Source: a virus
Lineage: Duplodnaviria > Caudoviricetes
IMG/VR virus record: IMGVR_UViG_3300029288_000081
Span: 96,001-160,000 of that record
DNA: 64,000 nt
Direction: 5' to 3' (one strand)
Part shown: positions 10,785-62,769 of the stretch, in pieces
How the letters are laid out: every line of letters begins with the position of its first letter
How positions within the stretch are numbered: the first letter of the stretch is position 1
Position numbers and translations under genes: made by a program
Notes under the pieces: model-generated
Told to the model about the DNA's origin: nothing
Databases searched by the model: none
The model's input: only the letters and a program-made list of their open reading frames with translations

Positions 10785-11075
10785 TCAGCGCTTGGCGGTG
10801 GAGCGCCAAGGGTGCCCTTTGCTCGGGCGTACGGGCCGGTTGTTGCGCCTGCCATCGATCTTGACATCGGGCTCGACCGTGTCTGCGGCGCGATGGCTCG
10901 CGTATCGACCCACGAGGAGGGTCCGCCAGCTGCGATAGGCGTCGGCCACCGCTGCACCGAGGACGTCCTCGTCGGAGAGGCGGCGTTCTGACGCGAGCAA
11001 CCGTTCTTCGATCTTGTCCATGACCTTCACGGCAGCGTCGTACAGGTCCTGGTCCATCGGCATCTTGAGCGTCAT
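10785..11075 (-). CDS. Hypothetical protein (96 aa)
   Basis: MTLKMPMDQDLY...; coupled to the primase stop. Confidence 0.65.
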   Translation of the reverse strand: MTLKMPMDQDLYDAAVKVMDKIEERLLASERRLSDEDVLGAAVADAYRSWRTLLVGRYASHRAADTVEPDVKIDGRRNNRPVRPSKGHPWRSTAKR

Positions 11076-12241
11076 CAGAGGATCTCCACGTCGATGTGGT
11101 CGGTGAAGTAGGCGGGAGCCTTCGCACCGTTGCAGCGCGGGCCGCGAAGGTACGGGCATCGGTAGCCCCAGCTCACGAGCGTGTCGCAGCGAACCGGGCT
11201 CAGGCCGAAGGTCTCCTTCCACTTCTGCTCGGTGTCGGAGGCGCTGTAGCGAGCATCCACACGGCTGAACTCGTGAAAGGCATCGCGGCCATCGTCGCCG
11301 AAGCGGTGGAGCTGGATCGCAAGCGCGAGCCACAGCTGGTAGCTCTGGTTCCGCGGGTCGCGCATGTGACGCATGAACTCGCAGAACTTCACGGTGTAGT
11401 CGAGCCGTCCGCTGCCGCCCTGGATGACCGGCAGCCTGACGCCAGGCGTGCCGAAGCCGCCGTAGCTCACCTCGGGTGCGCTGGTCAGCGGAGACCCGGG
11501 AGCCTCGGCGAGGCCCTGGACCAACTCGGCAAGGCCCCACGAGCGCCCTTCCAGCGCCGCGACGGCATGCTCCCAGTGCCGACCGTCCGGCTCGAACTTG
11601 CCCATGGCGACGTTCTTGGGGTCCAAGGGCAGCGTGCCGCCGCTCTTCCTGGCGAGCTTGCCGTTGAGCGGGCTGCCGACGAGGTTGCCGGGCTTGCGGG
11701 TGCCGTCGTCGTTCGGGATGGGGTTCAGGTAGTCCTGCGGAGGGATGAGCCTGTCGAAGCTCTGCGGCTCCCCGTCGCTGAGGTCGTCGTCGGGCATGGT
11801 CAGGACGCCCGCCTCTTCGAGCCACGTGTTGAACCAGCGGCGAGCCATCCATGCCGGGACCGGCTCGTTGAAGAGCACGCGGACGTGAGCGCCCTTCGCA
11901 GATCGCGACAGGTTCACGAAGAGCGGCGCGCCGGTGTCGATGAGGAACTCGACCGTGCGCTTGACGTCGCGCATCCAGTCGACGTGAGGCTTCTTGCCGT
12001 CGAAGTCGGCAGCGACCCAGCGCACGTTGGGCGCCTTGTGGTTGCCGAACGGGATGAGCGCGTAGCTGCCGATCTCGATGGTCCCTGCGAGGTGCATCGC
12101 GGCATGACCATCAGTGAGCGGCGCGTAGACGGGCCGCCACGACCAGCCGGTGGCCTTGTCGGTCTGCATCGCGAAGACGTCTTCGGCGCCTCGGGTGAGA
12201 TCGCGGAAGATGCGGATCTTGTCTTCGGGCGACAGGTTCAT
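11075..12241 (-). CDS. Archaeo-eukaryotic primase (AEP) with PriCT-2-like and Cys-rich C-terminal domains
   Basis: hhhDxD (VAADFD), SRSAKGAHV, PGNLVGSPL; YQLWLALA...FHEFSR...KW PriCT-2 pattern; PVRC...CPY...C. Confidence 0.85.
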   Translation of the reverse strand: MNLSPEDKIRIFRDLTRGAEDVFAMQTDKATGWSWRPVYAPLTDGHAAMHLAGTIEIGSYALIPFGNHKAPNVRWVAADFDGKKPHVDWMRDVKRTVEFLIDTGAPLFVNLSRSAKGAHVRVLFNEPVPAWMARRWFNTWLEEAGVLTMPDDDLSDGEPQSFDRLIPPQDYLNPIPNDDGTRKPGNLVGSPLNGKLARKSGGTLPLDPKNVAMGKFEPDGRHWEHAVAALEGRSWGLAELVQGLAEAPGSPLTSAPEVSYGGFGTPGVRLPVIQGGSGRLDYTVKFCEFMRHMRDPRNQSYQLWLALAIQLHRFGDDGRDAFHEFSRVDARYSASDTEQKWKETFGLSPVRCDTLVSWGYRCPYLRGPRCNGAKAPAYFTDHIDVEIL

Positions 12242-12588
12242 GAGATCTCTCCCGCAGCACGGAGGCGTGCCACGTTCCATTCGATCCAGAGCGCGTCGCC
12301 CGTGTCGGTCCACTGCCACAGCCACGCGCTTGCGCCGGGGAGCTGCCAGTAGATGCCGATGAAGGTCCAGCCGTCGCGTTCGCGGTTCCATCGCCACGCG
12401 CGGCATGTTTCCGTCTGGCCTTCAGAGCGGAGCAGAAGACAGCGCATCGAGCAGAGGCGCCGCAGGCGAGTAGGATTGATCTGTTCGACCCTCAACGCGT
12501 CTTCGGTGCGGACGTAGTCGTCGCATTCGACACACTGAACGAACACACCGAGCCGCCTCATGGCTTCATCGCGAATGGCCTGGCTCAC
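12238..12588 (-). CDS. Hypothetical protein with a CxxC/CSxxC zinc-finger motif
   Basis: GTG start overlaps the upstream stop; CVEC...CSMRC. Confidence 0.6.
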   Translation of the reverse strand: MSQAIRDEAMRRLGVFVQCVECDDYVRTEDALRVEQINPTRLRRLCSMRCLLLRSEGQTETCRAWRWNRERDGWTFIGIYWQLPGASAWLWQWTDTGDALWIEWNVARLRAAGEIS

Positions 12589-13998: not shown

Positions 13999-14354
13999 CG
14001 AGACGCTCGCTTGATGCCAAGCGACCTTTTGGGGCGCATGGGCACCATGTATGTCTTGCTGATCTGTTCCGCCAGAACACGCACATCGTGCGCAACGAGA
14101 TGCGCGCTAGCGGCGCCCATCAACTCGTCACGCGACCTTGCGACAACCTCGTAAGTCCGCGAGACGGACACTCCATGGACACGAGCTACCGACGAAATCG
14201 ACATGCGGTGCACGTATCGCTGCTCGAACATCTCGCGCGCCTGGTCTCCTCCGCGTGTGCGGTAGGGAGACGAGAGCCAGTCGCCGAAGCTGTCCAGCAG
14301 CCATCGCGCGTGCTGTGGCGCCAGATCCAACGTCTCGAATGACGGAATCTTCAT
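13995..14354 (-). CDS. Sigma-70 region-4-like HTH protein
   Basis: REMFEQRYVHRMSISSVARVHGVSVSRTYEVVARSR; start overlaps the helicase stop. Confidence 0.6.
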   Translation of the reverse strand: MKIPSFETLDLAPQHARWLLDSFGDWLSSPYRTRGGDQAREMFEQRYVHRMSISSVARVHGVSVSRTYEVVARSRDELMGAASAHLVAHDVRVLAEQISKTYMVPMRPKRSLGIKRASR

Positions 14355-17300
14355 GCCCCAGTCGCCTTCCTGTGCGTCCAGATGGCTCGCGCTGCCATGC
14401 CCTTCGTGAGGTTCTCCCCGACGGGCAGCTTGTGGAACCGGAGGTAGTTGATCTGCTTGACCGTCGCCGGGACGCGCATCTTCATGTCGCGCTCGACGCG
14501 CATGATCGTGATGAGGTCGCTCGCCTCGCCGGCTGTCTCCGGCATCGTGCGTTCCTTCACCCCAGTCGAGAGCAAGAGGCTGCGCTGCTTCGCGGACACC
14601 GGGCGATCTCTCCACCCGGCATCCTTGAGCATCAGCTCCTCCTCGGGGAGGAAGGTGGCCTCGTCGGTGCCCTCGTCGAGGTCCACGAACGAGGCGACTG
14701 GCTGGTCGGTGTCGGCAGGCGCACCGTCGTCGCGCCGAGCGCTGCGCGCCCGGAAGATGCGGTCCATCTCCCCCTCGACGAGACCGTAGGCCAGGTCGAA
14801 CTCGACGGGCTGGCGAACGACCTCGCGCGGGGGCTCGTGCTTGCGGCCGTCCCGCTGGTCGAAGAAGCGGATGACGGCCATGTGGTGCGCCTTGTCGCTC
14901 CACGCGACGAGGTAGTAGCCGATGCGCGGGATCTGCAAGATCCACCCGAGCGTCGTCTCGCGCCACTGGTACTGGCTCTTGGGCTTACGCGACCCGAACG
15001 TGACTTCGACCGCCTCGCCCACCTTCGCTCCGGTGACCTCGTCATGCTCCACAGGCTCGTCGATGTCCTCCTGCCCATCGCCGAACCCCTTACCCTCGCC
15101 CTTGTACTTGCGCTCGGGGTCGAAGCCGGCCAGCGAGGCGAGCTGCACCGGCCGGTGCTTGGCGCTGTTGCCGACGCAGTCGATGACCAGGCACTCGGTC
15201 TTGCCCGGGTAGAGCCGGAGCCCGCGCCCGAGGCAGTTGCCGACGACGGCCGCCTTGCCGTGGCGGCGCGTGATGACGGTCCCGGTCGAGGTTTCGACGC
15301 ACCAGACGCGTTCGTCCGGCGCGCGATCGACCTCGCGCATCGTCAGCTCGGGGCGGCTGCCGTTGATGGTGTGGTAGCGCTTGTCCGGTGCGATGTTCAG
15401 CTTGGGAAAGCCCTTGCCCCGGCCGCGGTCGTTCACGTGCTCCGACAGATTGCACCGCATACCACGCGTCAAGCAGAGCGCCTGGAACATATCGTGAAGC
15501 CCGGTGCCCGGCTTCTGGTAGATGCTCCAGGTCTGCGGTTCCCAGTCGATCGACGCGCTTTCCTGCCGTGCCCCATCGCCCTTGTTGAACGCTTCGAGGA
15601 AGATCCGCCACTGGCGCGCCGACAGCTCGTGAAACGCCGCCGTCGGCTTCTTGGTGCCGTCGCGGCTGATCCAGCGGTCGAGATACTTCCAACCACGCTT
15701 GTCTTTGTGCGTTCCGCGAGGCGTGCCGTACGACACGTACCACGTGAACATCTCGTGGTTCTTCTTGAACTCGGTATCGCACTTCTTGTGCTGACGGCCG
15801 AACTTGAGGCCACACTCGCGAAGAGAGCGTTCGATCGCCTTCACAAAGCGAGAACGGACGCCTTGGTAGAGCACGAGCGCGTTGTTTGCGCGGTTCCATG
15901 ACCCTTCGGCGTACCACCAGCCGAGCAAGGTCAAGTCGGCATCGCTGATGCCAGGACAGTCCTGCGCGTCCTCGGGCTCAGCCACGGAAACGATGGCCGT
16001 GAAACACTTCGGCATCTGCGATGCCACGGTCCACATCGGCTTCTTGTTGCGCCGCTGCTTGTAGATCATCCGATGGTTGCCGGTGACGCGGATGTCGATA
16101 CCCGGCAGCTTGAGCGCGTACATCTTCTCGCGCTCGTGCATAGGGCGATCGACGCGTGACAGGATCGGCGACCAGACGCAGCGCTCGGTGTCCGGATCCA
16201 TCGTCGCGACGATGTCATCGTCGTGGACGGTCTGCGGGCCCACCCATCCTCGCTTCGTCAGGATCTCGGTCTGGTAGTCGAGGCACTGGATGTAGAGCCC
16301 CTGCGACTGCGTGGGCCGAGCGAAGACGATGCCCTCTGCGCTCGGGTCGTCGTAGCCTTCACTCAAGACGTTGCAGTTCACGAGCAGCTTGACCTCGCCC
16401 TCGCGGAAGCGACGCAGCGCCTCGTGCCGGTCCTTCTTCTTCATGCTGCCGTCGAGGGCGACCGCATGGTGCCCGGCGTCGTTGAATTCCTGCGCGAGCG
16501 CGTGTGAATGGGCCACGTCGCAGGCGAACACGATGCACTTGCGGTCGTGACCGTAGGCGCGCCACGCCTCGACGACCGCACGGTTCACGTGCGGCGTGTT
16601 CATCAGCTTGGACAGCTGGGTGACGACGTAGTCCCCGTCGCCGGTGTCCACCTTGTCGAGGTCGATGTCGATGTCGACCCGGAACCCGTGAGGCGGCACG
16701 AGCCAGCCGTCGCGGATCATCTCGAAGGCGTTCTTCTCGTACGCGACGACGTCGAAGACTCGGTCGAGCGCGATACCGTCTGCGCGCCCCGGGGTTGCGG
16801 TCATGCCCATGAGCAGCATGTCCGGGTTCGCCTCGCGCAACGCCTGGATCACGCTCATGTACTGCGCACCGACGGCGTGGTGAGCCTCGTCGATGATGAC
16901 CAGCCGGAAGGAGCCGCTCGCGATGAGCGCCTTGAGCTTGTTCTTGCTGCGGTGCCCGATCGTCTGGATGGATGCGACTGTGATCTCGCGCCCCAGCTCG
17001 TTGTGCTTCTGCTGTACGAGGCCCACCCGTGTCATCGGGCTGACGAGCCTGACCTTGTCCATCGTCTGCGTGAGCAGCTCCTCACGGTGCGCGATGAAGA
17101 GGCACCTGCCGCCCGAGCCCTTGAACACGCGCGCCATGATCTCGGACGAGATGATGGTCTTGCCCGCCGCCGTGGGGAGAACAAGCAACGGAGCCTTCGC
17201 GCCGCGTGCCCACGCGTCGTGAACGGCGTCGATCGCTTCGAGCTGGTAGTCGCGGAGCTTGACGGTCGTGCCGCCTCCGCTGCTGGCCATCGGCACTTCG

Positions 17301-17488
17301 ACGACGTGAGCCTCGGCGGTCTGCTCGGCGAGCGGCAGGACGGCGCCGGGCGCCGCGCCGACGACGAGAGAGTGGAGCCGCAGGTTCGTGCCGGGCTGCA
17401 ACGTCCACGTGCTTGGGTCACGATCGCGGGCGATCATGTCGGGCACGACGATGCTGTCGGGCATGGGAACGAACGGCATCGAGATCAC
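14351..17488 (-). CDS. SF2 DEAD/DEAH-box helicase (Irc3/UvsW-like), intein-containing
   Basis: LRDYQ, LPTAAGKT, IIDEAHH, TATP, LSEGYD; motif VI YIQ|CLGRGLR is split by the intein. Confidence 0.93.
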   Translation of the reverse strand: MISMPFVPMPDSIVVPDMIARDRDPSTWTLQPGTNLRLHSLVVGAAPGAVLPLAEQTAEAHVVEVPMASSGGGTTVKLRDYQLEAIDAVHDAWARGAKAPLLVLPTAAGKTIISSEIMARVFKGSGGRCLFIAHREELLTQTMDKVRLVSPMTRVGLVQQKHNELGREITVASIQTIGHRSKNKLKALIASGSFRLVIIDEAHHAVGAQYMSVIQALREANPDMLLMGMTATPGRADGIALDRVFDVVAYEKNAFEMIRDGWLVPPHGFRVDIDIDLDKVDTGDGDYVVTQLSKLMNTPHVNRAVVEAWRAYGHDRKCIVFACDVAHSHALAQEFNDAGHHAVALDGSMKKKDRHEALRRFREGEVKLLVNCNVLSEGYDDPSAEGIVFARPTQSQGLYIQCLDYQTEILTKRGWVGPQTVHDDDIVATMDPDTERCVWSPILSRVDRPMHEREKMYALKLPGIDIRVTGNHRMIYKQRRNKKPMWTVASQMPKCFTAIVSVAEPEDAQDCPGISDADLTLLGWWYAEGSWNRANNALVLYQGVRSRFVKAIERSLRECGLKFGRQHKKCDTEFKKNHEMFTWYVSYGTPRGTHKDKRGWKYLDRWISRDGTKKPTAAFHELSARQWRIFLEAFNKGDGARQESASIDWEPQTWSIYQKPGTGLHDMFQALCLTRGMRCNLSEHVNDRGRGKGFPKLNIAPDKRYHTINGSRPELTMREVDRAPDERVWCVETSTGTVITRRHGKAAVVGNCLGRGLRLYPGKTECLVIDCVGNSAKHRPVQLASLAGFDPERKYKGEGKGFGDGQEDIDEPVEHDEVTGAKVGEAVEVTFGSRKPKSQYQWRETTLGWILQIPRIGYYLVAWSDKAHHMAVIRFFDQRDGRKHEPPREVVRQPVEFDLAYGLVEGEMDRIFRARSARRDDGAPADTDQPVASFVDLDEGTDEATFLPEEELMLKDAGWRDRPVSAKQRSLLLSTGVKERTMPETAGEASDLITIMRVERDMKMRVPATVKQINYLRFHKLPVGENLTKGMAARAIWTHRKATGA
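15236..16285 (-). mobile_element. Intein (350 aa) with LAGLIDADG endonuclease, inserted in helicase motif VI
   Basis: Starts CLDYQTEILTKRGW, block B VTGNHRM, LLGWWYAEGS and FLEAFNKGDG, ends VWCVET...VVGN followed by Cys+1. Confidence 0.93.
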
Positions 17489-26828: not shown

Positions 26829-27310
26829 AGCAGCCCCCTTCGCAGGCTCTTCTCGCCCGAGATGCGCTCGTAGGCGCGCTCGCGCTTGACGAGCTTGGCG
26901 TACGCCTCGATCTGCTCCACGAAGAGCACCGTCGACTGGATCGCCGTATCGCGCGTCGTGTCGTACAGGCCGAGCCCCGACGGCACGGGCACGGACGCGA
27001 CCCCGTCCACGATGATGCTGCGCAGCGCTTCGCACACCCTGACGGCCAGGAGGTACTCCGCGAAGTTCCACTGCCAGCGCGGCTTGATGCGGGCTCCCTG
27101 GACCGCACACGGTGTGAGAGCGGTGGCTGCGTCGAGCTGCACCAGGAGCACCGTCGCCGTCTTCGCGTGGACGGGGTTGAGCTTGAGCAGTTCGAGCACT
27201 GCGATGACGTCGGCGGTCGCCTTGGCGCCTGCTGCCCAGGTCGACGCCGACACCGGGTCGAACGGCATGGGCTCGGAGGGCTTCTTACGGAGGAGGGGGG
27301 CGGGCATCAT
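26825..27310 (-). CDS. Hypothetical protein (161 aa)
   Basis: Start re-called at MMPAPLL, overlapping the VWA gene stop. Confidence 0.65.
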   Translation of the reverse strand: MMPAPLLRKKPSEPMPFDPVSASTWAAGAKATADVIAVLELLKLNPVHAKTATVLLVQLDAATALTPCAVQGARIKPRWQWNFAEYLLAVRVCEALRSIIVDGVASVPVPSGLGLYDTTRDTAIQSTVLFVEQIEAYAKLVKRERAYERISGEKSLRRGLL

Positions 27311-29799
27311 GCACCTTCCGGGTTGACCACGATCACCCGCGCCCACTCGGGGCACGCAGCGATCGAGCGTTCGTTCGCTTCGATTGCGCAGATGATGACG
27401 CGCACGCCAGGGTCAGCGTCGGGCCATGGGGTCTCGCAGTCGGAGCCCAAGATGATCACGTCCGGTCGAGGGGTCATGTCGTCGAGCGCGGCCGCGATGC
27501 CCACACGCATGTCCGTGCCGCCTCGACCGCGCATCTCGATGGACCGACCGTTGTGGGCCCGCTGCACCCCATGGACGGCCGCGTCGGTCGCGAGGAAGGT
27601 CAGGGCCGCACCGAGGGCCATGCAGACGTCCTCGACCACGCCACGGACGAGCGCGAGGGCACCTTCGCTCATGCTGGCAGACGTGTCGCCGATGAAGATG
27701 ACGTTGGGGACGGGGCGACGCATCGAGGGGAAGACGACGTCGGGGGTCGCCTGCTGACGCCGGGAGGGGCGCTTGTAGTTGTGGGTAACCTTGCCCGAGA
27801 CGTCGTTGATGGCCCACCGGCAGGCGCCCGCAAGCTCCTGGTCCCACGGGATGGTCTCGGGGCGCAGGATCTCTTCTGCCCAGGACACCCACGACCCCGG
27901 CACCGTGCCGCGGCTCTTCTGGGCCTCCTCACGGATGGCCGCGGCGACGCGCCGTTCGATGTCCTTCCAGTCCGCGTCTTCGACGCCTTCGCCGCCGCCG
28001 TTCGCCGGGGACGGGTCTTCCCACGGCTGCTGGACGCCGGTCGCGGCAGAGCCGCACTTGTGCTTGCGGTTGCGCACGGGGTCGTTGCCGCCACCACCGG
28101 GCTTCTTGCCCTTGCGCTGGCCCTGGCCCTCGCTCTGTGCCGAGCCACCGTTGCCGCCGTCCTCGTTGCCGTTGCCGCCGTCGCCGTCCTTGAGCTGCTC
28201 GGCCAGCTCCTCGGCCTTGTCCATCAGGAGCTGGTAGTAGACCTCCATGACGAGACCGTCCTCGAAGCCGAACGTGCTCGGGTACACCGCGCCGCTCGGC
28301 AACGCCTGGATGTCCCGGTGCGTCTTGACCTCCTCGGCGATGTCGTCGTTGATCTCACAGTTGTGGACCTTGATGCCCTCAGCGATGAACGAGTGCTCCT
28401 TGTCACAGGACAGGTTGTAGACGGGCCCGGCGTAGTGGCCGCGAGCGACTTCTCTGATCGGAATCAGGATGCCCTCGTCGCATCGGCGCCACCGGCGATT
28501 CCACGACGCGACCACCTGACCGTTCAGCGTTCGCGGAGAGGTGCGTGGATCCCAGGTCCATCCGACATGGTAGAGCAAGCCTCCACCCTCGACGAAGTAC
28601 CCATCGATCGTGCGATCCTTTTGGACGAGAGTCGCACCCCAAAAGCCGAGTCCGAGACGAGCGAGCAAGAGCCTGACGTGGCACGCCAGACCGCGACTGG
28701 AAGTGTGGACGGCGACGTGATTCGTTCCACCCTTGCCACCTCCGCCCGCTGTGCCGTCGCCGGCCCAGAGACCTTCCAGGTAAGCACGCACGAGCTTGAG
28801 GTCTGCGTGGCGCAAGATGAACTCGGGGCAGTGCTTGTTGTGCGACCCGTCGCCGCACCAGGTCTTCAAGGCGCGGGCGAGCACCGGGCCGCCGATGTTG
28901 ACGCGGGTTCCGTTCTGGACCGTGGGGGTTGCCCTGTTGGTGTAGCTCGCGTCGCAGGCGCCTTCGTAGCCGAGTGAGCGCGCGATGGTAGCGGCGCGGT
29001 CGGCGAGTGCGCGCTCCTTGTCGGTCCCCCCGAGGGAAAGCTGCGCGTAGTCGGTCCCAGATCCTTCGGCCGTGTAGAGCCCGAGCAGCCATGCCGTCTG
29101 CTCGTTCAGTGGGAAGCCGCTCTTGAGGGGGCTCCGGTTCTCGTCGCTGCCGAACGCACTCACGCTGATGACCGTGTCGGTCACGTCGCCGCCGACGTCG
29201 GGGACGAGCATGAAGTCGCCGACACGGGCCTCGCTAGCCTTCGTCCATGCCGGATTCTTGAGCTTGACGGGCGTGAGACCGACCTTGTGTCGCCGGGGAT
29301 AGATCCAGATGGGATGCTCTGGCGTGCTCGTGATCTCGATACCGGCACCACGCAGCGTGACGGTCTCGCCATCCCACTCGCGCACGAGGTTGACACACGC
29401 CGAGTCGCCACCGTTGCCGCCGAGCGTATGGGAACGCGCCGCCTCGATCGGAAGACCGTCTGAAAGAATCGTTCCAACGGGAAAACAGTCGCCCGCGACA
29501 TTCGCAACCTGCATCGTGGCCTCGGTCACCCCGAGCGCGTGGAAGCGGTCGTGGTGCTTGCGCAGCTTGTGGCCGATCTCGTGAAGGCAGACCGTCGCGA
29601 TCTCGTCCACCGTGCAGGCGAGAACGAAGCGGGGGTTGTAGTAGAGGCGCCCCCACTTATCGACGCCCATCGTGGGCACGCCCTCGGACTGGATCGGGAT
29701 CAGCGCGTAGAGCGCATGCGCGAAGTAGGGGCGCAGGAACGCTGCCTTGGCGCGAGCGGCGCGCACATGATCTTCCGCAGCCTGGTTCTTGATAGCCAT
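27307..29799 (-). CDS. DUF2201-type metallopeptidase plus VWA-like domain protein, intein-containing
   Basis: TMGVD...LYYNP, HEIGH, NVAGD|CEIN, PSRR, MIDAS-like DTSASM, GRGGTDM. Confidence 0.9.
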   Translation of the reverse strand: MAIKNQAAEDHVRAARAKAAFLRPYFAHALYALIPIQSEGVPTMGVDKWGRLYYNPRFVLACTVDEIATVCLHEIGHKLRKHHDRFHALGVTEATMQVANVAGDCFPVGTILSDGLPIEAARSHTLGGNGGDSACVNLVREWDGETVTLRGAGIEITSTPEHPIWIYPRRHKVGLTPVKLKNPAWTKASEARVGDFMLVPDVGGDVTDTVISVSAFGSDENRSPLKSGFPLNEQTAWLLGLYTAEGSGTDYAQLSLGGTDKERALADRAATIARSLGYEGACDASYTNRATPTVQNGTRVNIGGPVLARALKTWCGDGSHNKHCPEFILRHADLKLVRAYLEGLWAGDGTAGGGGKGGTNHVAVHTSSRGLACHVRLLLARLGLGFWGATLVQKDRTIDGYFVEGGGLLYHVGWTWDPRTSPRTLNGQVVASWNRRWRRCDEGILIPIREVARGHYAGPVYNLSCDKEHSFIAEGIKVHNCEINDDIAEEVKTHRDIQALPSGAVYPSTFGFEDGLVMEVYYQLLMDKAEELAEQLKDGDGGNGNEDGGNGGSAQSEGQGQRKGKKPGGGGNDPVRNRKHKCGSAATGVQQPWEDPSPANGGGEGVEDADWKDIERRVAAAIREEAQKSRGTVPGSWVSWAEEILRPETIPWDQELAGACRWAINDVSGKVTHNYKRPSRRQQATPDVVFPSMRRPVPNVIFIGDTSASMSEGALALVRGVVEDVCMALGAALTFLATDAAVHGVQRAHNGRSIEMRGRGGTDMRVGIAAALDDMTPRPDVIILGSDCETPWPDADPGVRVIICAIEANERSIAACPEWARVIVVNPEGA
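28360..29487 (-). mobile_element. Intein (376 aa) with LAGLIDADG endonuclease, in the DUF2201 peptidase domain
   Basis: Starts CFPVGT, block B STPEHPI, LLGLYTAEGS and YLEGLWAGDG, ends VYNLSC...IKVHN followed by Cys+1. Confidence 0.93.
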
Positions 29800-47490: not shown

Positions 47491-48141
47491 GTGAGCGTAG
47501 AGCGTGCGAGACTCCATGCGGGCGCCTGGGCCGGTCACTTCGACATGCTCAGAGCACACCTGTATGCGCCCACCTTCAACGAGGCGATCGGAACCACGGA
47601 GCCATACCGTGGGACCGATCACACCGTGGCGGTGATGATCCAGCTCGCCAAGGGTCTCGTCGACCCTCGGGCGATGGTGCAGAGCGCGCTTCAGGGAGAG
47701 CGGAGCATCCGCTTCCGAAGGCACACCGAGCAGATCATCAACAATCTGCGGCCCAAGGACTACACGTCCGAAGTCATCGCCATCAGCAGGTGGTGGGGCA
47801 ACGCGGGCCGATACACACGGGACCCACTACACGTCGAGCTGATCCGTGCTCCGGACCGTCTCCTCGACGACGCGCTTGCCGGCAGACTCCTGGTCGACTG
47901 CGACGATCTGGCGCTCGCCATCGCGACGTCGTGCCTGACCATCGGGGCTCGCGCACAGTTCGTCACCGTGGGCTTCAAGCCGCGCCTGCCGGGCCAGCCG
48001 AAGGTCCACACGCACGTCTTCGCTCGGGCCCAGGACCCCAAGAGCAAGGTCTGGTGGGTGCTCGACCCGGTCGCCGGCCGTAAGACGGGCGACATGCTGC
48101 GTCGCGTGAAGCAGTACACGATCTTCGAGGTGGACCGATGA
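47491..48141 (+). CDS. Transglutaminase-like cysteine protease (candidate maturation protease)
   Basis: YTRDP...VELI, DCDD (Cys), THVF (His), WWVLDP (Asp) triad; true start may be ATG 47545. Confidence 0.8.
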   Translation: MSVERARLHAGAWAGHFDMLRAHLYAPTFNEAIGTTEPYRGTDHTVAVMIQLAKGLVDPRAMVQSALQGERSIRFRRHTEQIINNLRPKDYTSEVIAISRWWGNAGRYTRDPLHVELIRAPDRLLDDALAGRLLVDCDDLALAIATSCLTIGARAQFVTVGFKPRLPGQPKVHTHVFARAQDPKSKVWWVLDPVAGRKTGDMLRRVKQYTIFEVDR

Positions 48142-52060: not shown

Positions 52061-52876
52061 ATGAGCTACTACGAAGAAGGCATGATGGGGCTCGGCGACC
52101 TGCCGGCCGGCGCAACGATCCCCTCCGGGGCTCAGTACGCGCTCGGCTTCCAGGTCACCGGCCTGACGCCCACGACGTCGCCCCAGGCGGTCTCGGCGCT
52201 GCGGGCAGTGGTCGGCACGGCGTTCCGCGGGAACCTCGTGGCGGCCGGCTGGGGGCCCGCGTACGGGGTCCCTTCTGGCCGACTCTACGCGGTGCTCCAG
52301 ACGGCACGCGGCCTGACCGGCGCCGACATGAACACCGTGGCGCACATGATCACCGGTGCCCTGCCTTCTCGCCTGCCTGGAACGACGGTGACCAACACCA
52401 ACTTCCACCTGGTCGGCGGCTCAGGCGGAGGCGCTGCGGAGACGGCAGCGGCCAGCATCACCGGTGCCATCGACCCCGTCACCGGACTCCTCACCGCCCT
52501 CACGTCAGGCACTCCCGCTACCTACCCTGGGGCCGACGCTGGCTACCCCATCGCCACAGAGCCCGCCGAGAACTTCTTCACCCAGAGCGTGGGCGGCGTG
52601 CCGGTGTGGGGCCTGCTCGCGGGCGGCGTGGTGGCGATCGGCGCCATTGCGTACGTCTTCATGGGCAAGCCCAAGACAGCGGCGACGGTGACGGCGAACC
52701 GCAAGAGCAAGCGCGGGAAGAAGCAGCATCGCTGGCGCAATCGCCAGGGACAGTGGCACGTCGGCGGCGGGTACGGCCGCGAACGCGGTCAGGGACGAGG
52801 CGGCCGTGATCGGGTCCGTCGGTCGTCGTCGGATGGGCCGTCATGGCTGAACACGAACGGTCGGAGGACACGATGA
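52061..52876 (+). CDS. Membrane protein (MSY family, 271 aa)
   Basis: MSYYEEGMMGLGD, TM, VTAN-RKSKRGKK...LNTN-GRRTR. Confidence 0.85.
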   Translation: MSYYEEGMMGLGDLPAGATIPSGAQYALGFQVTGLTPTTSPQAVSALRAVVGTAFRGNLVAAGWGPAYGVPSGRLYAVLQTARGLTGADMNTVAHMITGALPSRLPGTTVTNTNFHLVGGSGGGAAETAAASITGAIDPVTGLLTALTSGTPATYPGADAGYPIATEPAENFFTQSVGGVPVWGLLAGGVVAIGAIAYVFMGKPKTAATVTANRKSKRGKKQHRWRNRQGQWHVGGGYGRERGQGRGGRDRVRRSSSDGPSWLNTNGRRTR

Positions 52877-54084
52877 GCTACGCAGGACTCGGACAGATTC
52901 TCGCCAACATCGGCGCTCGCATGACAGGCGCCGTCGTGTCGCCGACCCCCAGCCGCGTGGTTGTGGCACCCTCTCGCCCCAGCAGCCCCATCGTCGTGAC
53001 GCTGCCCCCGCGACCGAGCGGCGGTGCCGTGGTGGTGACCAGGGCTCCGGCAGCAGACGCGCTCACAGCAGCAGCGATCGCCAAGGCCAACGTCGACCGC
53101 GCGTTCCGCGCGTATGCGGCGACCAGCTACAACGATCCTCTCGCACGCAACAACCGTAGGCAGGCCCTGCTCGCAGCGGGTCGCGAGATGGTCAGGAAGT
53201 TCATGGCGGTGAGGCCCGCCACGGAGACCGAGCGTCTGCGACTGCGGGCCCTGGAAGCGACCGCACTCGCGAGTTCGCAGACGCGGCAGCGGTGCTTCAG
53301 CACCGGCAGCAACGGCTGCGGGCGCTTCGCCGCGAACGAGCCGCCCGGTCCGGTCAAGGTGAACGACGAGTTCGTGGCCGTGACGCGTCCGCTGGACAAC
53401 CTCCTGCGGCTCAACGTCACGCCCATGGCCATGCCGGTTCCCCGGGTGCCGCCGATCGTCATCGCCGGTCGTCTGATCCAGACCGTCTCTCCGCGCGCGG
53501 CGCAGCTCGTGGTGGACTCGGCCAAGGCCGGAACGGCAACGGCGGCTGCCAAGCTGGAAGCTGACGTGAAGGTCTCCCAGGAGGTCACCAAGCCCGAGAC
53601 GAAGGTCGCCGCGGACAAGGTCGTCGTGGCCCAGGCGGGCGCGGACGCGGCAGCCAAGGCAGCGGAAGACCTCGCCATGAAGGCCAAGATGGCCGCCGAG
53701 GAGGCCGACAAGGTCGCCCAGGCTGCCAAGGAGGCAGGGACCATCGCCGCCGCTCAGGCGGCAGCCACGGCAGCCCAGGCGGCAGAGCAGGCCAAGGTGG
53801 TGGCAGAGCAGGCCACAGTGGCCGCTGCCGAGGTCGCCACGGTCGCGGACGAGGCACGGAGCGAGCTGGAGACGGTCGCTGCGGAGACCAACGACGTGCC
53901 CGCTCAGGAGGCGACGACCGAGGCGACCATGACGGTCGCAACGACCGGCCTCGGACCGCTCGGCGTGTCGTGGAAGATCTGGGGCCTCGGCGCCGCAGCG
54001 CTCGTCGGCGGCTACTTCCTCCTCAACAGCCGAGCCATGGCGAAGAACCGCCGTCGCGTTCGTCGGAACCGGAGGCACCGGTGA
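52873..54084 (+). CDS. Ala-rich coiled-coil membrane protein (MSY family, 403 aa)
   Basis: MSYAGLGQ, TM, MAKN-RRRVRRNRRHR; GGAGG RBS. Confidence 0.85.
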   Translation: MSYAGLGQILANIGARMTGAVVSPTPSRVVVAPSRPSSPIVVTLPPRPSGGAVVVTRAPAADALTAAAIAKANVDRAFRAYAATSYNDPLARNNRRQALLAAGREMVRKFMAVRPATETERLRLRALEATALASSQTRQRCFSTGSNGCGRFAANEPPGPVKVNDEFVAVTRPLDNLLRLNVTPMAMPVPRVPPIVIAGRLIQTVSPRAAQLVVDSAKAGTATAAAKLEADVKVSQEVTKPETKVAADKVVVAQAGADAAAKAAEDLAMKAKMAAEEADKVAQAAKEAGTIAAAQAAATAAQAAEQAKVVAEQATVAAAEVATVADEARSELETVAAETNDVPAQEATTEATMTVATTGLGPLGVSWKIWGLGAAALVGGYFLLNSRAMAKNRRRVRRNRRHR

Positions 54085-54389
54085 GCCTCTTCGGCACCCA
54101 CCTCTTCGCGAGCGACGCTCTCGGTCAGGTCACCCTGCCCGAGCCCGCGAGCGACGCTCTCATGAGCGAGCTGCGGGTCACCGGCGGCCGCTCGCGCACG
54201 GTCGAGCCCTCCAGCACACCGGACGTGCCCAAGGAGACGGGCGACAAGATGCTCTCCGGCGGAGGACTGCCGACCTGGGCACCCTACGCGATGGTCGGCG
54301 GCGGCATCATCTTCGCTGGGCTGATGATCTGGTCCTCGATGCGGCGCCCGACCCCCAACCGTCGTCGCCGCCACAGGAGATCCCGATGA
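54081..54389 (+). CDS. Small membrane protein (102 aa)
   Basis: GTG start, ALGQ, TM, PTPN-RRRRHRRSR. Confidence 0.8.
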   Translation: MSLFGTHLFASDALGQVTLPEPASDALMSELRVTGGRSRTVEPSSTPDVPKETGDKMLSGGGLPTWAPYAMVGGGIIFAGLMIWSSMRRPTPNRRRRHRRSR

Positions 54390-54958
54390 GCTACTTCGAG
54401 ACACTTCCCGGCATGGGACGCCCCAGCTACAGCGACGGCATGGGCGCTGTCTTCCCCACGAGGGAAGAGAGCCCCGACATGCGGGCTCTTCAGCAGGGCC
54501 TCCAGCGCATGAACCTGCTCCCGGTCGACGGAGCCACCGGCCGCTGGACCATCGCCACGGCAGCCGCGCTCGCAAAGGCCAACAAGAACCTCGGTCGCAC
54601 CGCAGCACCGCGCACCGGGTTCACCACCACCAACCGCGGCGCGAACGTCGATGTCCCGGACGATCTCGTCGCGGCCATCCTGAACACGCCCGCTGCGCCT
54701 CCTGCGGCACCTCCCCCCGGTCCCGATCCGGCCGCCACGCCGCCCCCGGGCATGATGCTCATCGCGCCGACCGCGCCGCCCCCCTCGCTTCTGCCTCCCG
54801 CCATCGAGGAGCCGTCTCGCACGAAGCTCTACGTCGCGGCAGGCCTCGCGGTGGTGGTGGTCGGTGGGATCGCCGCCTACGCGCTCTGGCCGAAGAAGAA
54901 GAGCACGCCGAACAGGCGCCGTGTGCGTCGCAACCGGCGTCGGCGCTCGCGTCGCTGA
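54386..54958 (+). CDS. Membrane protein with a peptidoglycan-binding-like domain (MSY family)
   Basis: LPGMG, DGMG; MRALQQGL...VDGATGRWTIATAAAL; Pro linker; TM; STPN-RRRVRRNRRRRSRR. Confidence 0.8.
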   Translation: MSYFETLPGMGRPSYSDGMGAVFPTREESPDMRALQQGLQRMNLLPVDGATGRWTIATAAALAKANKNLGRTAAPRTGFTTTNRGANVDVPDDLVAAILNTPAAPPAAPPPGPDPAATPPPGMMLIAPTAPPPSLLPPAIEEPSRTKLYVAAGLAVVVVGGIAAYALWPKKKSTPNRRRVRRNRRRRSRR

Positions 54959-57105: not shown

Positions 57106-57486
57106 ATGTCGTACATGCGAGGAATGGGAACCACAGCCACGGACGTCGCCGCCGTCACCACAGCGGTGGGCACTGCCGCGGCGCAGCTCATCGCGGCGGC
57201 GCGAGGCACACCGGCGACCACGCCGTACTCGACGGAGGGAGCGATCAACCCCGCCACGGGCCAGCCCTACGGGACGCTGCTCAATCCCGCCACGGGCATG
57301 CCCTACGGGGCGATCGACCCGGCCACCGGGCGCCCCTACGGCGAGCCGGCGCCGTCCTACACGCCGTACATCGTCGGCGGCCTCGTGCTCCTGGGCATCG
57401 GCGCCTTCTTCTTCACGCGGAAGCGGAGCGTGGCGAAGAACAGGCGTCGCGTGCGCCGGAACCGTCGCCGCTCGCGCAGGAGCTGA
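57106..57486 (+). CDS. Membrane protein with three (N/D)PATGxPYG repeats (MSY family)
   Basis: MSYMRGMG, repeats, TM, VAKN-RRRVRRNRRRSRRS. Confidence 0.85.
   Translation: MSYMRGMGTTATDVAAVTTAVGTAAAQLIAAARGTPATTPYSTEGAINPATGQPYGTLLNPATGMPYGAIDPATGRPYGEPAPSYTPYIVGGLVLLGIGAFFFTRKRSVAKNRRRVRRNRRRSRRS
57238..57342 (+). repeat. Three coding tandem repeats of 33-36 bp
   Basis: GAINPATGQPY / GTLLNPATGMPY / GAIDPATGRPY. Confidence 0.85.
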
Positions 57487-57489
57487 GCC

Positions 57490-58326
57490 ATGTCGTACGC
57501 CCTCTCGCAGGTCGACCCCACACCGCCGCCGACGAGGCCGATGAACTGGCCGATGATCCTCGGCTGGACCGCTGTCGTCGGCATGACGATCGCCGTCTTC
57601 AACGGCACCATCAACCTCCAGGGTGGACGCGTGAAGGCGAACAGGCGACACAGGTCGTCGCGCAGGAGGTCGTCGCGCAGGCGTAGCCTGCGGCGCAACC
57701 CCCGCTACCGGATGTGGTCGGGCCCGGTGTACGCGAAGGACCTCGCGAAGGCGATCCGTGACGCCGGAGCGCACGACGTCATCGCTGGCACCGAGCACGT
57801 CATCTTCCGTACGGATGACCTCGAAGCCCTCAAGGCGCGAGCCGGATCCGCGAAGCCATTCCTCGATTTCCGTGGCGTGAAGATGATGATGGCCAACGCC
57901 AGCCGCCGCTCCTCGCACGCGCGACCGAAGCCGCCGAAGTTCAGCGAGATGGCCATCTGGCAGGCGATCGCCGCGGTGCGCGAGTCGGGCCGCTCCTCCG
58001 AGATCGCCAGCATCCTGCCGCCCGGCGTCGCCGCGAAGTTCAAGCACCTCGCCCCCGGGCTCTACAAGTACGGACGTGGGCCCAAGAAGGGCGAGGTCAT
58101 CGTCCAGTTCAAGAACGCAGGACTCAAGGGCGCTCTCACCTCCACGCGCATCGGCGCCTCGAAGGTCGGCGAGTACCACTGGGTCGTCGACAACTTCGAC
58201 CCGAAGTTCCCCGTCGCCATCCGCGGCATCGACGATCACGGGCGCACGTTCTTCCGGATCGAAGAGCACGCACGGAAGTTCGAGCGTGTGCCGGTCCGCG
58301 TCTCGCGCAAGACCGCAGCGCGGTGA
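57490..58326 (+). CDS. MSY-family protein: N-terminal TM followed by two small domains behind Asn/Arg linkers
   Basis: TM, VKAN-RRHRSSRRR, LRRN-P, MMAN-ASRR. Confidence 0.8.
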   Translation: MSYALSQVDPTPPPTRPMNWPMILGWTAVVGMTIAVFNGTINLQGGRVKANRRHRSSRRRSSRRRSLRRNPRYRMWSGPVYAKDLAKAIRDAGAHDVIAGTEHVIFRTDDLEALKARAGSAKPFLDFRGVKMMMANASRRSSHARPKPPKFSEMAIWQAIAAVRESGRSSEIASILPPGVAAKFKHLAPGLYKYGRGPKKGEVIVQFKNAGLKGALTSTRIGASKVGEYHWVVDNFDPKFPVAIRGIDDHGRTFFRIEEHARKFERVPVRVSRKTAAR

Positions 58327-59585
58327 GCATGCCCAAGCTGCTCGCCAACGGCAGGCCGGAGGCCAAGGGTCGCCGATCATCCAACAAGGAGGTCGGCGAC
58401 CTGATCCAGAAGGCCCGCGCGCAGGGCTGGTCCGTCCTGCACACCGGCAGCGGGCACTACGTCTTCCGCTCGCCCGACAAGACGAAGCCCCAGGTGATCG
58501 TGCCGAGCACGCCAGGAGGCGGCAACCGCTCGCTTCAGAACGCAAGAGCCCTGCTCAAGAAGAGCGGTCTCGTCATGAACCCGTACTACCACGCGACTCG
58601 TGCCGACTTCGCACGGCAGATCCTGGAGGAGCGCAAGCTCCGTGCACATCCGGCGAGGAAGTACGGCGGCCGCCCTGCCGTGTTCGCAGGAGACACGCGG
58701 TCTTCGACGATGGGAGACGCCGCGCTGAGCTGGTCCGACAGCAAGCACTCCCTGCACTTCGGGGCACATCCCGAAGACGAGAACGTGCTGATCGAGTTCG
58801 AGGCTGACGAGCCCGATGACCGGCGCGGCCCGCACGGGCACGAAGCGGTCTGGTTCCACGACGTGGAGCTTCGCGACCCGAAGATCGTCACGCGCCGTCC
58901 TGGACGCATGGTGTGGAACGGCGGAGACGTCGCTGCGCGGTTCATGCGGCTCGTCAACATGACGCCTTCGCAGATCCGAGCATGGGCCAAGGACCCTCGT
59001 TCCAGGTGCTACTCGTTCGCCTCGACACGTGCACGTCTCCCGGCACTCGCGAAGCTGCGAGCCAAGCCGGTGAGCGAGTGGACGGCGAAGGACTACGCCT
59101 TCGCACGACGCGTGGTCTCGTTCAACACCCGCATGCTCGGTGCCAAGCGACGCGACGGGTGCCGAGACGGCTACACCGTCTCTCTTCGGAACTGGGGACA
59201 CGATCCGAGGTGCAAGCTCCCGGTGTCGTGCAAGAGCAAGAGGTCTTCGATGAAGAGGAACAAGCGACGCGTTCGCAGGAACCCGCAGGTCTCGTACGGT
59301 CTGATCGCCATCGGCATCGCTGGTGTCGCGGCGCTGGCTTGGTGGGCTTCGCGGCCAGCCGTGCCGACCACGCCAGCGCTCGCGGCGAACCAGAACGCAG
59401 CGGCTGCGGTTGCCGCGCAGCGTGAGCCAGAGATCGTCCGCATGATGGCGCGTGACCCTCGTCTCACACGAGCGGAGGCTGCTGCGCGGTACGATCGCGC
59501 TGTCGGCGCTGTCTTCGCTGCGGCGTCTACGATCGCCGCGGGCCTGCGCCCCACGAGCGGCATGGGCAGCTACTATAGGACGTGA
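58323..59585 (+). CDS. Multidomain polyprotein-like protein: HicA-like + ART-like + DUF3140-like + TM
   Basis: QGWSVLHTGSGHYVFRSP...VIVPSTP; YYHATR...QIL; FMRLVNMTPSQI...SLRNWGHDP; TM YGLIAIGIAGVAALAWW. Confidence 0.75.
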   Translation: MSMPKLLANGRPEAKGRRSSNKEVGDLIQKARAQGWSVLHTGSGHYVFRSPDKTKPQVIVPSTPGGGNRSLQNARALLKKSGLVMNPYYHATRADFARQILEERKLRAHPARKYGGRPAVFAGDTRSSTMGDAALSWSDSKHSLHFGAHPEDENVLIEFEADEPDDRRGPHGHEAVWFHDVELRDPKIVTRRPGRMVWNGGDVAARFMRLVNMTPSQIRAWAKDPRSRCYSFASTRARLPALAKLRAKPVSEWTAKDYAFARRVVSFNTRMLGAKRRDGCRDGYTVSLRNWGHDPRCKLPVSCKSKRSSMKRNKRRVRRNPQVSYGLIAIGIAGVAALAWWASRPAVPTTPALAANQNAAAAVAAQREPEIVRMMARDPRLTRAEAAARYDRAVGAVFAAASTIAAGLRPTSGMGSYYRT

Positions 59586-60319
59586 TGGTCATGCTCCGGA
59601 ACGGTTGCCCTTCGTGCGGTGGCGTCTCTCACCCGGCGACAGGATCTGTCCTGCCGTCGGGAGAGGTGGTGTGCGGCCCGTGCGTGAGGCGGTTCTGGAG
59701 CTGGGCCTCGGAGCACGGCAAGAAGACGTACCGCGTCGGCAAGAAGGGCAAGGGCTCGAAGTACATCGCGTTCCCGACGGGGATCACGAAGAAGAACCCT
59801 GCCGAGCGCGACTGCATCAAGTGCAGCGGCACAGGACGCATCCCACGGTTCGGGCACTACGCCGAGGGCGTCTGCTTCGACTGCGGTGGGACTGGCGTGG
59901 AGCGCAAGGGTAGCCGGCGTGGACCGGCGCTGCCGCCGTCGGAGCCGGAGCCCGTCGAGAAGAAGATCCATCGAAGCGTCTCGGACTTGCGGACGATGTG
60001 GCACAACTACAGTGTCCACCACAGGTCGGGGGCGCTCGATGAGATGTGGCTCAACTGGTCGCACGGTAGGTACGACAGCGAGTGGTCGCGGTTCGTCAAC
60101 GGCGAGCGTGCGACGAAGCCGATCTCTCCGTCTGCCGCGGACGGTAGGCGTGAGTGGCTGGAGACCGTTCAGTTTCTGCTGGACGACTTGCGCAAGCTCG
60201 GCGCCCCAGAGAAGGCTGACGAGATCGCCAAGCAGTTCCAGACGCACCTGCACGCGCCGGTGAAGAACAGGCGGTCGCGTCGCACGAGCCGACGTCGCAC
60301 GAGCCGGCGGAGGCGCTGA
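59582..60319 (+). CDS. Zinc-finger protein with an Arg-rich tail
   Basis: CPSC..CGPC; KKNP; CIKCSGTG..CFDCGGTG; PVKN-RRSRRTSRRRTSRRRR. Confidence 0.8.
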   Translation: MMVMLRNGCPSCGGVSHPATGSVLPSGEVVCGPCVRRFWSWASEHGKKTYRVGKKGKGSKYIAFPTGITKKNPAERDCIKCSGTGRIPRFGHYAEGVCFDCGGTGVERKGSRRGPALPPSEPEPVEKKIHRSVSDLRTMWHNYSVHHRSGALDEMWLNWSHGRYDSEWSRFVNGERATKPISPSAADGRREWLETVQFLLDDLRKLGAPEKADEIAKQFQTHLHAPVKNRRSRRTSRRRTSRRRR

Positions 60320-60756
60320 TGTCAGGCCGATGGGGCACCAGGGGAGCGGGGATCTTGATCGCCGCTCGCAACACCGGACGCGTCCTTCTGCTTCGCCGCT
60401 CGGCCGAGGTGAACGAGGGCGGCACATGGGGCACGCCCGGAGGGAAGATCGAGCCACGCGAGAGCGCTCGTACGGCAGCCATCAGAGAGCTGCGTGAAGA
60501 GGCTGGCTACAGCGGTCCGATCACGGTCATGAAGGAGCCCATCTTCGTGTTCAAGGAGCCGAACTTCGAGTTCCTGACCTTCTTCGGACACATCGACGAC
60601 GAGTTCGATCCGTATCTGAACTGGGAGAGCGATAACGCAGGATGGTTTCCGCTGAGCAAGCTGCCGCGACCACTGCACTTCGGCGTGACCGCTCTCATGC
60701 GTGAGCGGAAGAGCGACGTCGCGGCGGAGATCGATCGCATTCAGTGGCAGTCCTAG
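60319..60756 (+). CDS. NUDIX hydrolase
   Basis: Nudix box GGKIEPRESARTAAIRELREEAG. Confidence 0.93.
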   Translation: MSGRWGTRGAGILIAARNTGRVLLLRRSAEVNEGGTWGTPGGKIEPRESARTAAIRELREEAGYSGPITVMKEPIFVFKEPNFEFLTFFGHIDDEFDPYLNWESDNAGWFPLSKLPRPLHFGVTALMRERKSDVAAEIDRIQWQS

Positions 60757-62704: not shown

Positions 62705-62769
62705 CACTCTCGAAGACCTGGGGCGTGCCCCTCCCTGCTACGGCGGGTCGAGCGGGTGACGTGTGTCCA

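Follow-up and report, generated by a model that had tools for sequence, protein, structure and literature searches.

A module-shuffled effector-type protein of an uncultivated freshwater virus and its asparagine delimiter

Polyvalent proteins of phages and conjugative elements carry several unrelated conflict-type domains, and these domains are shuffled extensively (Iyer et al. 2017, PMC5512222). ADP-ribosyltransferase (ART) and NUDIX domains are common among these proteins, which are associated with MuF, portal and late genes and whose domains are predicted to be released proteolytically by peptidase domains of their own (PMC5512222). The locus described here lies in a window of 64,000 nucleotides, bases 96001-160000 of the 171,466-bp IMG/VR virus record IMGVR_UViG_3300029288_000081, which comes from an uncultivated freshwater virus of about 67% G+C. 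The open reading frame (ORF) 58323-59585(+) of this window encodes a protein of 420 aa with a short leader, a HicA-like domain, an ART-fold domain, a DUF3140-like domain, a basic linker, a transmembrane (TM) helix and a conserved C-terminal module. In the clade to which this protein belongs, the modules are permuted, swapped or solitary exactly at the Asn residues of a recurring (L/I/V/M)-x-x-Asn motif. The motif is a real, lineage-specific module delimiter, and it is likely that the delimiter is a functional one.

The closest known kind of protein is the polyvalent or packaged-effector protein of phages. The present protein resembles these proteins in having at least two unrelated effector-type domains in one polypeptide and in having mosaic relatives. 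It differs in that it is small, TM-anchored and without a peptidase, MuF or portal domain of its own. The polyvalent-protein paper names neither HicA nor DUF3140, and it describes neither an Asn delimiter nor Arg-rich spacers (PMC5512222). The combination of an Asn-based delimiter with Arg-rich spacers would be new.

A second comparison is with viruses that trim their proteins during maturation. The cleavage sites of the T4 and phiKZ type have Glu at P1 (L/I-x-E, A-x-E), whereas P1 Asn with a hydrophobic P4 is proposed here in place of the P1 Glu of the T4 gp21 system. The internal proteins of T4 are single-domain proteins with one leader, while the present protein is multi-module. The T4 protease gp21 trims IPI-III and the ADP-ribosyltransferase Alt, cutting short N-terminal peptides from internal proteins that are packaged in the head (PMC9958956). 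In the giant phage SPN3US, ejection proteins are reported to be located in the head and eight head proteins to be cut by the prohead protease (PMC5694885, PMC7411985). A protease of the S78 or gp21 type was not found in the present record.

The adenovirus protease adenain represents a further system. Its sites read (M/I/L)-x-G-x-G, and its substrates include basic core precursors. Adenovirus maturation is similar in its hydrophobic P4, its small polar P1, the many late proteins involved and the Arg-rich DNA-condensing peptides that lie beside the sites. The P1 residue is different, the host here is bacterial, and the likeness is one of mechanism only. An adenain-like (clan CE) protease was not detected in the present record.

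Architecture and folds of the protein

The ORF is placed in a one-strand block of small ORFs in a record that is 100% complete by CheckV and has no terminal repeats. The third-position G+C (GC3) is about 0.8 all along the ORF, a coding-type value. The ORF opens with GTG, and the database copy begins at an ATG two codons further down. The domain limits were fixed from free-standing homologues without use of the motif, and the AlphaFold2 (AF2) models agree with them. An exhaustive phmmer search gave 343 proteins at E<=1e-3, and these fell into four non-overlapping groups: many proteins of 65-75 aa spanning aa 19-84 (HicA-like), a few proteins spanning aa 83-200 (the middle domain), many proteins of 110-130 aa spanning aa 201-308 (DUF3140-like), and proteins of 100 aa spanning aa 324-418 (the TM tail). 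The protein consists of three independently folding modules, to which a basic linker attaches a TM helix and then the conserved C-terminal module, and the architecture and folds assigned below can be stated with high confidence. When relatives of the whole protein or of the ART module were sought, isolated phages yielded a HicA-only match, viral contigs yielded one sister genome and 185,579 species genomes yielded none.

The HicA-like domain (aa 21-86; 58383-58580(+)) ends in G-L-V-M-N at N86. Its AF2 model has the order helix-strand-strand-strand-helix (aa 21-80) with a predicted local distance difference test score (pLDDT) of 90-97, which is the HicA fold resembling a double-stranded RNA-binding domain. 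HicA structures head the Foldseek list (6g26_F, probability 0.99, TM-score 0.62 by target), and VIA-align gave Z scores of 5.7 for 1whz and 5.6 for 6g26_E (57/61 residues, root-mean-square deviation (rmsd) 2.8). The best matches in the PDB include 4p78, 1whz, 4c26 and 5yrz. The domain also matches phrog_2089 (E=8e-9). In Pfam, the domain alone scored 18.8 bits against HicA_toxin (PF07927), below the gathering cut-off of 27, and 14 of 32 homologues matched this family at E<=0.01, the best at 5e-5. A PDB profile search reached HicA3 at E=0.35. The His of G-S-G-H is invariant in an alignment of 32 sequences and, judged from that alignment, probably represents the conserved catalytic His of HicA; one Arg is also invariant. 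Residue N21 begins the first helix and is frequent in the free-standing HicA-like homologues, which stop 2-3 residues past the conserved G-L.

The domain is a divergent HicA-like subfamily. It shares its fold and the conserved His with the HicA toxins but differs from them in its Pfam score below the cut-off, in having no HicB partner and in being embedded in a larger protein. Pfam and PHROG scans of the neighbouring ORFs gave no HicB antitoxin. A tblastn search found 39% identity to gp58 of the Arthrobacter phage Mufasa8, a protein annotated as HicA-like.

The middle domain (aa 87-199; 58581-58919(+)) starts with P-Y-Y-H-A-T-R and ends with M-V-W-N at N199. The AF2 model of the whole protein was poor in this region, which only three close sequences cover, and a separate model of the module was used (pLDDT 94.5, predicted TM-score (pTM) 0.85); seven sequences were gathered for its alignment. 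In a VIA-align comparison with 48,161 chains, the top 50 were nearly all ADP-ribosyltransferase-fold chains. The Z scores were 7.8 for TreTu (86 aa, rmsd 2.7), 7.8 for KptA (79 aa, rmsd 2.2), 7.5 for TreX, 6.9 for PltA, 6.4 for diphtheria toxin and 6.3 for pertussis toxin, with tankyrase, DarT, Arr and PARPs further down, and every single one of these values lies within the usual noise ceiling of the tool. The fold is assigned because the list is uniform and not because of any single Z. An Atlas search found the Tpt1 and AbiGi clusters with TM-scores of 0.57-0.62. When the model was compared with the PDB by Foldseek, no row reached E<=1e-3, and the weak top rows were Arr, KptA/Tpt1 and TreTu.

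At the sequence level the module stands apart. None of the seven members matched any Pfam family at E<=5, a PDB sequence search matched no ART, hhalign against a neighbouring ART-PolyVal protein gave a probability of 0.2, and profile and further searches found no members beyond the seven. Numbered within the module, the invariant residues are H4, T6 and R7 (first strand), R31 with V34-F35-A36 (next long strand), W91 and D94. A late strand begins with E88 in six of the seven sequences, and one homologue has Gly in its place. As read from the alignment and the model, the layout of H4, F35 and E88 resembles the H-(Y/F)-E arrangement, the aromatic Phe standing where the H-Y-E class of ARTs has Tyr. 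The likeness to TreTu, KptA/Tpt1, Arr and DarT is in the core fold at about 110 residues. With the minimal ART toxins the module appears to share the His-x-Thr in the first strand and the Glu that opens a late strand, but it has no sequence-level relationship to them. On the modelled structure, the middle domain is a new minimal ART-fold family, new at the level of sequence.

The DUF3140-like domain (aa 200-308; 58920-59246(+)) is all-helical, with an AF2 pLDDT of 92-98. The domain alone scored 23 bits against DUF3140 (PF11338; E=1e-4), just under the cut-off of 25, and 20 of 24 phmmer homologues matched the family, the best at 6e-23. Membership is accepted because of this transitive homology. 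The Atlas's own model of the domain has a TM-score of 0.82 to a viral DUF3140 cluster and also matches domains within prohead-protease/capsid fusions; solved structures gave no informative match. N212 is invariant across the family. Ten long phmmer hits were scanned for fusions. The DUF3140-like stretch follows Phage_portal in P0051, P0140 and P0145 and Portal_Mu in P0121, lies ahead of Mu F in P0140, comes immediately past an S78 prohead protease in P0094, and adjoins NUDIX in P0105 and topoisomerase IB in P0040. These fusions suggest that DUF3140 is a domain often attached to phage head-internal proteins and may be placed among head-internal cargo. No mention of DUF3140 was found in the literature searched.

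The remaining parts of the protein are shorter. The N-terminal leader (58323-58349(+)) closes in L-L-A-N at N9, and the homologues have equivalent leaders of 4-7 residues with a final Asn. Behind the DUF3140-like domain, the basic linker (59247-59282(+)) contains the tandem motifs M-K-R-N (N313) and V-R-R-N (N320), with low pLDDT at aa 300-321. In the AF2 model it is followed by the TM helix (aa 322-342; 59286-59348(+)). The HicA-like, ART and DUF3140 domains are predicted to be cytoplasmic because the basic residues are on the N-terminal side of this helix, in keeping with the positive-inside rule. The conserved C-terminal module (59349-59582(+)), recognised from the homologue groups and from AF2, forms a helical hairpin (aa 351-407) and also exists as free-standing proteins of 100 aa and fused behind HicA alone. 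Both the present protein and the free-standing tail modules end in G-M-G-S-Y-Y-R-T.

A prior sequence-only reading of this DNA had named HicA-like, ART-like and DUF3140-like domains, the second of these from the opening YYHATR, and had put their boundaries at hydrophobic-x-x-N. The fold comparisons bear out the first two names, the Pfam matches of the homologues bear out the third even though the present copy falls just short of the cut-off, and the boundaries agree with limits set independently of the motif. The same reading had advised AlphaFold models for confirming folds and linkers and a search for homologues with shuffled domains that keep their Asn linkers; confident domains separated by stretches of lower pLDDT were obtained, and such homologues were found, as described below.

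An asparagine motif at the module junctions

The module order differs between close relatives. P0002, a syntenic protein of 416 aa that is 74% identical to the present one and whose upstream gene is 61% identical to its counterpart here, has the order ART, HicA, DUF3140, and all three breakpoints are directly past Asn. The HicA module always starts with Gly and ends with L-V-M-N, and the ART module always starts with Pro and ends with W-N. In other architectures the ART module is accompanied by SprT-like or DUF4314-like modules, and HicA is followed by a TM tail, an unknown domain or an Arg-rich tail only. All of these have x-x-N between the modules, with or without an Arg-rich spacer. The upstream neighbour (57490-58326(+)) follows the same grammar: in its syntenic homologue a different module occupies the middle, between two (L/M)-x-x-N sites, and the modules on either side are conserved.

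The presence of the Asn depends on context. It directly follows the HicA-like domain in 14 of 26 cases where more sequence comes after, as against 1 of 31 where the domain is terminal. In the clade, each of the six ART-module copies follows an Asn and has W-N as its last residues; the distant P0098 shows neither feature. In other lineages, where DUF3140 is fused to portal or protease, the linkers are acidic and lack the Asn, from which the delimiter is taken to be lineage-specific. P0098 (L014:4029-5312), the most distant ART-module homologue, is fused to a YunG-like domain without Asn delimiters; two genes away on its 82-kb metagenome contig is a NUDIX plus ART-PolyVal protein (L014:6001-6861).

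In the present protein, 5 of the 14 Asn residues (N9, N86, N199, N313 and N320) are located at independently set limits, and each of the five has L, M or V at -3. Of the other nine, seven (N21 and N212 among them) belong to the three folded domains, and the last two, N356 and N358, are in the C-terminal tail. At all five candidate sites the pLDDT drops (block means 47-73) between the confident domains.

The motif is also evident elsewhere in the genome, where Asn accounts for 2.5% of residues. Many of the counted sites are homologous, and the P values therefore overstate independence, both for the Asn residues followed by a basic stretch, which have L, I, V or M at -3 in 25 of 43 cases (58%, with 21.6% expected; P=2e-7), and for the Arg/Lys-rich runs immediately preceded by Asn (10/49, with 1.2 expected; P=3e-7). 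Around the basic-flanked Asn, hydrophobic residues are depleted at -5, -4, -2 and -1. The seven control residues (D, S, T, Q, G, A, E) have 11-25% hydrophobic residues at -3. Over all 1224 Asn residues of the genome, the loose hydrophobic-x-x-N pattern is scarcely enriched (26%, with a background of 21.6%). Arg-rich C-terminal tails begin at Asn or Asn-Gly in 16 of 19 cases by reading of the listed tails, and many proteins begin with a leader of 4-7 residues that ends in Asn and precedes unrelated first modules.

Three other interpretations of the junctions were set aside. The P1' residue was dropped as a determinant of the motif since N-P (1.22x) and N-G (1.12x) are not enriched genome-wide. 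A DNA recombination signal was rejected because the codons differ at equivalent junctions. N-glycosylation sequons were likewise rejected, there being no N-x-S/T at the junctions.

The basic stretches have recurring features of their own. The unit R-R-R-(V/L/M)-R-R-N recurs in several proteins, and the seven residues past N313 fit it; the present protein has K-R-R-V-R-R-N ahead of the TM helix, where its clade homologues have R-R-R-L-R-R-N. The identical heptad R-R-R-V-R-R-N is found in the C-terminal tails past a TM helix in 52843-54084, 54386-54958 and 57106-57486. About ten proteins genome-wide open with M-S-Y followed by G-(L/M)-G within a few residues (for example those at window positions 52061, 54386, 57106 and 57490), which may be compared with the G-M-G-S-Y-Y-R-T ends noted above. 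In the M-S-Y proteins the G-(L/M)-G motif and the Arg-rich run are on opposite sides of the TM helix. An ORF of 939 aa (window 62725-64000, continuing to genome position 161544) has at least 12 Arg/Ser-rich runs of the type R-R-R-S-R-R-G-S-R-R, several of them flanked by V-V-M-N or similar, and looks protamine-like or like the tail of the hepatitis B core protein.

Proteolytic processing and its alternatives

The motif is hard to explain without a function of its own because it has a P4/P1-like pattern, marks the ends of unrelated folds and is retained through permutation and swapping. That it closes very short N-terminal leaders also points to such a function. In the interpretation favoured here, whose chances are put at a little below even, the product of the ORF is a polyvalent-type effector precursor whose delimiter is specific to the clade, and the Asn motif is a processing site. 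That the delimiter is a proteolytic site is similarly plausible without being probable, and packaging of the products in virions is doubtful.

Under this interpretation, (L/I/V/M)-x-x-Asn would be recognised with a hydrophobic residue at P4 and Asn at P1, and a virus-encoded endopeptidase would cut at the motif. The candidate is a transglutaminase-like ORF of 216 aa (47491-48141(+)), which a language model places closest to viral transglutaminase-core (papain-like Cys) clusters (Atlas score 0.97). Cutting would detach the soluble effector domains both from the membrane anchor and from the Arg-rich stretches, for which a role as handles for targeting or DNA binding is envisaged. Once released, the HicA-like domain would act on host RNA and the ART fold on an NAD-dependent target early in infection, in parallel with T4 Alt and the T4 internal proteins, which are trimmed by the prohead protease. 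Proteolytic processing would also explain the tolerance to module order.

A number of observations weigh against processing. At -3, T or P takes the place of the hydrophobic residue in some junctions, as in R-T-S-R-N. The junctions are just 3-4 residues long, and those between HicA and ART and between ART and DUF3140 are nearly linker-free, an arrangement that would not easily admit a protease acting in trans. Helices start directly behind N199 and N320, and N21 is a clear helix cap, so that the conservation of Asn may be structural. The Arg-rich runs may be nucleic-acid-binding or topogenic elements instead of released peptides, and the basic residues beside the TM helix may simply set its topology.

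The protease and the particle are likewise hard to place in this record. The 216-aa ORF has no Pfam or PHROG match and is, by language-model similarity only, a weak candidate. Searches of the genome with Pfam C13, C14 and Transglut_core gave nothing, and no known Asn-specific protease was found. Packaging is proposed by analogy with other phages. Terminase, portal and HK97-type capsid had no Pfam match among the record's 52 proteins of at least 230 aa, and six-frame searches of the record with Terminase_6N, Phage_capsid and Phage_portal were equally negative, which leaves packaging without an anchor here.

Some of these observations would be expected if the protein worked uncleaved and membrane-tethered, with (L/I/V/M)-x-x-N and the Arg-rich runs forming a non-proteolytic linker or handle. 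In that case the motif might be a helix cap with a hydrophobic staple, an arginine-rich nucleic-acid-binding motif in which Asn provides specificity, or a docking site for a partner, and the modules would shuffle at the motif because it is a permissive linker. The helices directly behind N199 and N320, the capping by N21 and the empty protease searches agree with this explanation. The conservation of R-R-R-(V/L/M)-R-R-N as a whole unit suits a binding motif, and the R-R-T-S-R-R repeats, together with a kinase-like match in the genome, recall phospho-regulated nucleic-acid-binding tails. However, S, T and D cap helices equally well and are not used at the junctions, and N86 is followed by a beta strand and not by a helix. 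The motif also closes leaders of 4-7 residues, where it is hard to see what a linker or cap would do, and its strict hydrophobic preference at -3 with depletion at adjacent positions has the look of protease subsites. An uncleaved protein is considered unlikely.

The possibility was also considered that the domains are not virion cargo and that the protein, cut or uncut, is inserted in the host inner membrane during infection with its HicA, ART and DUF3140 domains facing the cytoplasm, where it could act in host takeover, superinfection exclusion or an abortive-type switch. The orientation predicted from the basic residues ahead of the TM helix is consistent with this location, and no head genes are recognisable nearby. 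On the other hand, portal, MuF and prohead-protease proteins repeatedly carry fused DUF3140-like domains, and the one-strand block of small TM proteins with a protamine-like protein resembles a particle module. A role confined to the host membrane is accordingly rated as improbable.

Cutting at Asn does not strictly require a protease. Self-cleavage at Asn is known from FlhB/YscU (Asn-Pro-Thr-His), reovirus mu1 and the nodavirus coat proteins, and the junctions might be asparagine peptide lyases in which the Asn attacks its own carbonyl, a succinimide forms and the Asn-Pro or Asn-Gly bond breaks. Such a reaction would dispense with the protease that the genome searches did not find, very short linkers would be no obstacle to it in cis, and Pro or Gly is the commonest P1' residue in a count over the homologue junctions. 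The known lyases (MEROPS N families) likewise cut C-terminal to Asn, often at Asn-Pro, and many of them are viral structural proteins in which the reaction is well documented (PMC3207474). However, viral cutting after Asn is known only at single self-cleaving sites in dedicated folds that set an acidic residue beside one specific Asn (PMC3207474), whereas the present motif trails unrelated folds and unstructured basic runs and recurs between unrelated modules, which argues against membership. Furthermore, R, K, S, T, A and N also occur at P1'. Self-cleavage is regarded as very improbable.

Finally, chance or shared ancestry without function, for which the scarcely enriched loose pattern and the homology of many counted sites might be cited, is given next to no weight because modules as unlike as HicA, ART, DUF3140, DUF4314-like, zinc ribbons and TM tails have the motif at their borders, and because it survives their reordering and is missing from free-standing and out-of-clade homologues.

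Genomic surroundings and biological meaning

The downstream neighbour (59582-60319(+)) has two Cys-rich, zinc-ribbon-like modules with Asn junctions and a tail of Asn and Arg-rich sequence. Two genes downstream of the ORF is a NUDIX hydrolase (60319-60756(+); Pfam E=1.3e-18). In related loci NUDIX adjoins or is fused to ART or DUF3140 domains, and it may be a functional link to NAD/ADP-ribose chemistry.

The Pfam matches in the record include an integrase, glycosyltransferases, an M23 peptidase, a muramidase, GP88, PcfJ, a kinase-like protein and SprT. PHROG and Pfam scans identified almost nothing among the late-region proteins, and tblastn of a late protein of 800 aa against phages found nothing. 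The opposite strand encodes an AEP-TOTE-type primase with PriCT-2 (11075-12406(-)), for which tblastn gave no match in 50,697 phage records, and a ResIII/SNF2-like helicase of 1045 aa (14351-17488(-)). LAGLIDADG endonuclease segments lie within a DUF2201 metallopeptidase/VWA protein and a glycosyltransferase, and an RtcB ligase exceeds its Pfam profile length by about 300 residues and has two matched stretches (window 27307-29799(-); L004:5926-8547(-); L004:8994-11213(-)). The LAGLIDADG insertions and the split RtcB are probably inteins.

Three aspects of this locus hold whether or not the protein is cleaved. The permutation of modules at exact junctions between syntenic homologues clearly illustrates intragenic cassette shuffling, the middle domain represents a new minimal ART-fold family, and DUF3140 gains its first functional context from its repeated fusion to portal, MuF and prohead protease. 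A broader proposal, which is rated as unlikely, is that a viral maturation system not known before, with P1 = Asn, uses the motif as its cleavage code. The system would act on at least 20 proteins in a freshwater lineage of 160-170 kb genomes that have no recognisable HK97 capsid, portal or terminase, cutting effector cassettes from membrane-anchored precursors and releasing protamine-like Arg-rich peptides. If so, the cassettes would be freely permutable and exchangeable between genomes because their products separate after translation. If the motif is indeed a processing site, it would represent a new protease specificity in virus maturation, and it would provide a simple rule for spotting cargo and effector cassettes in an uncultivated virus lineage.

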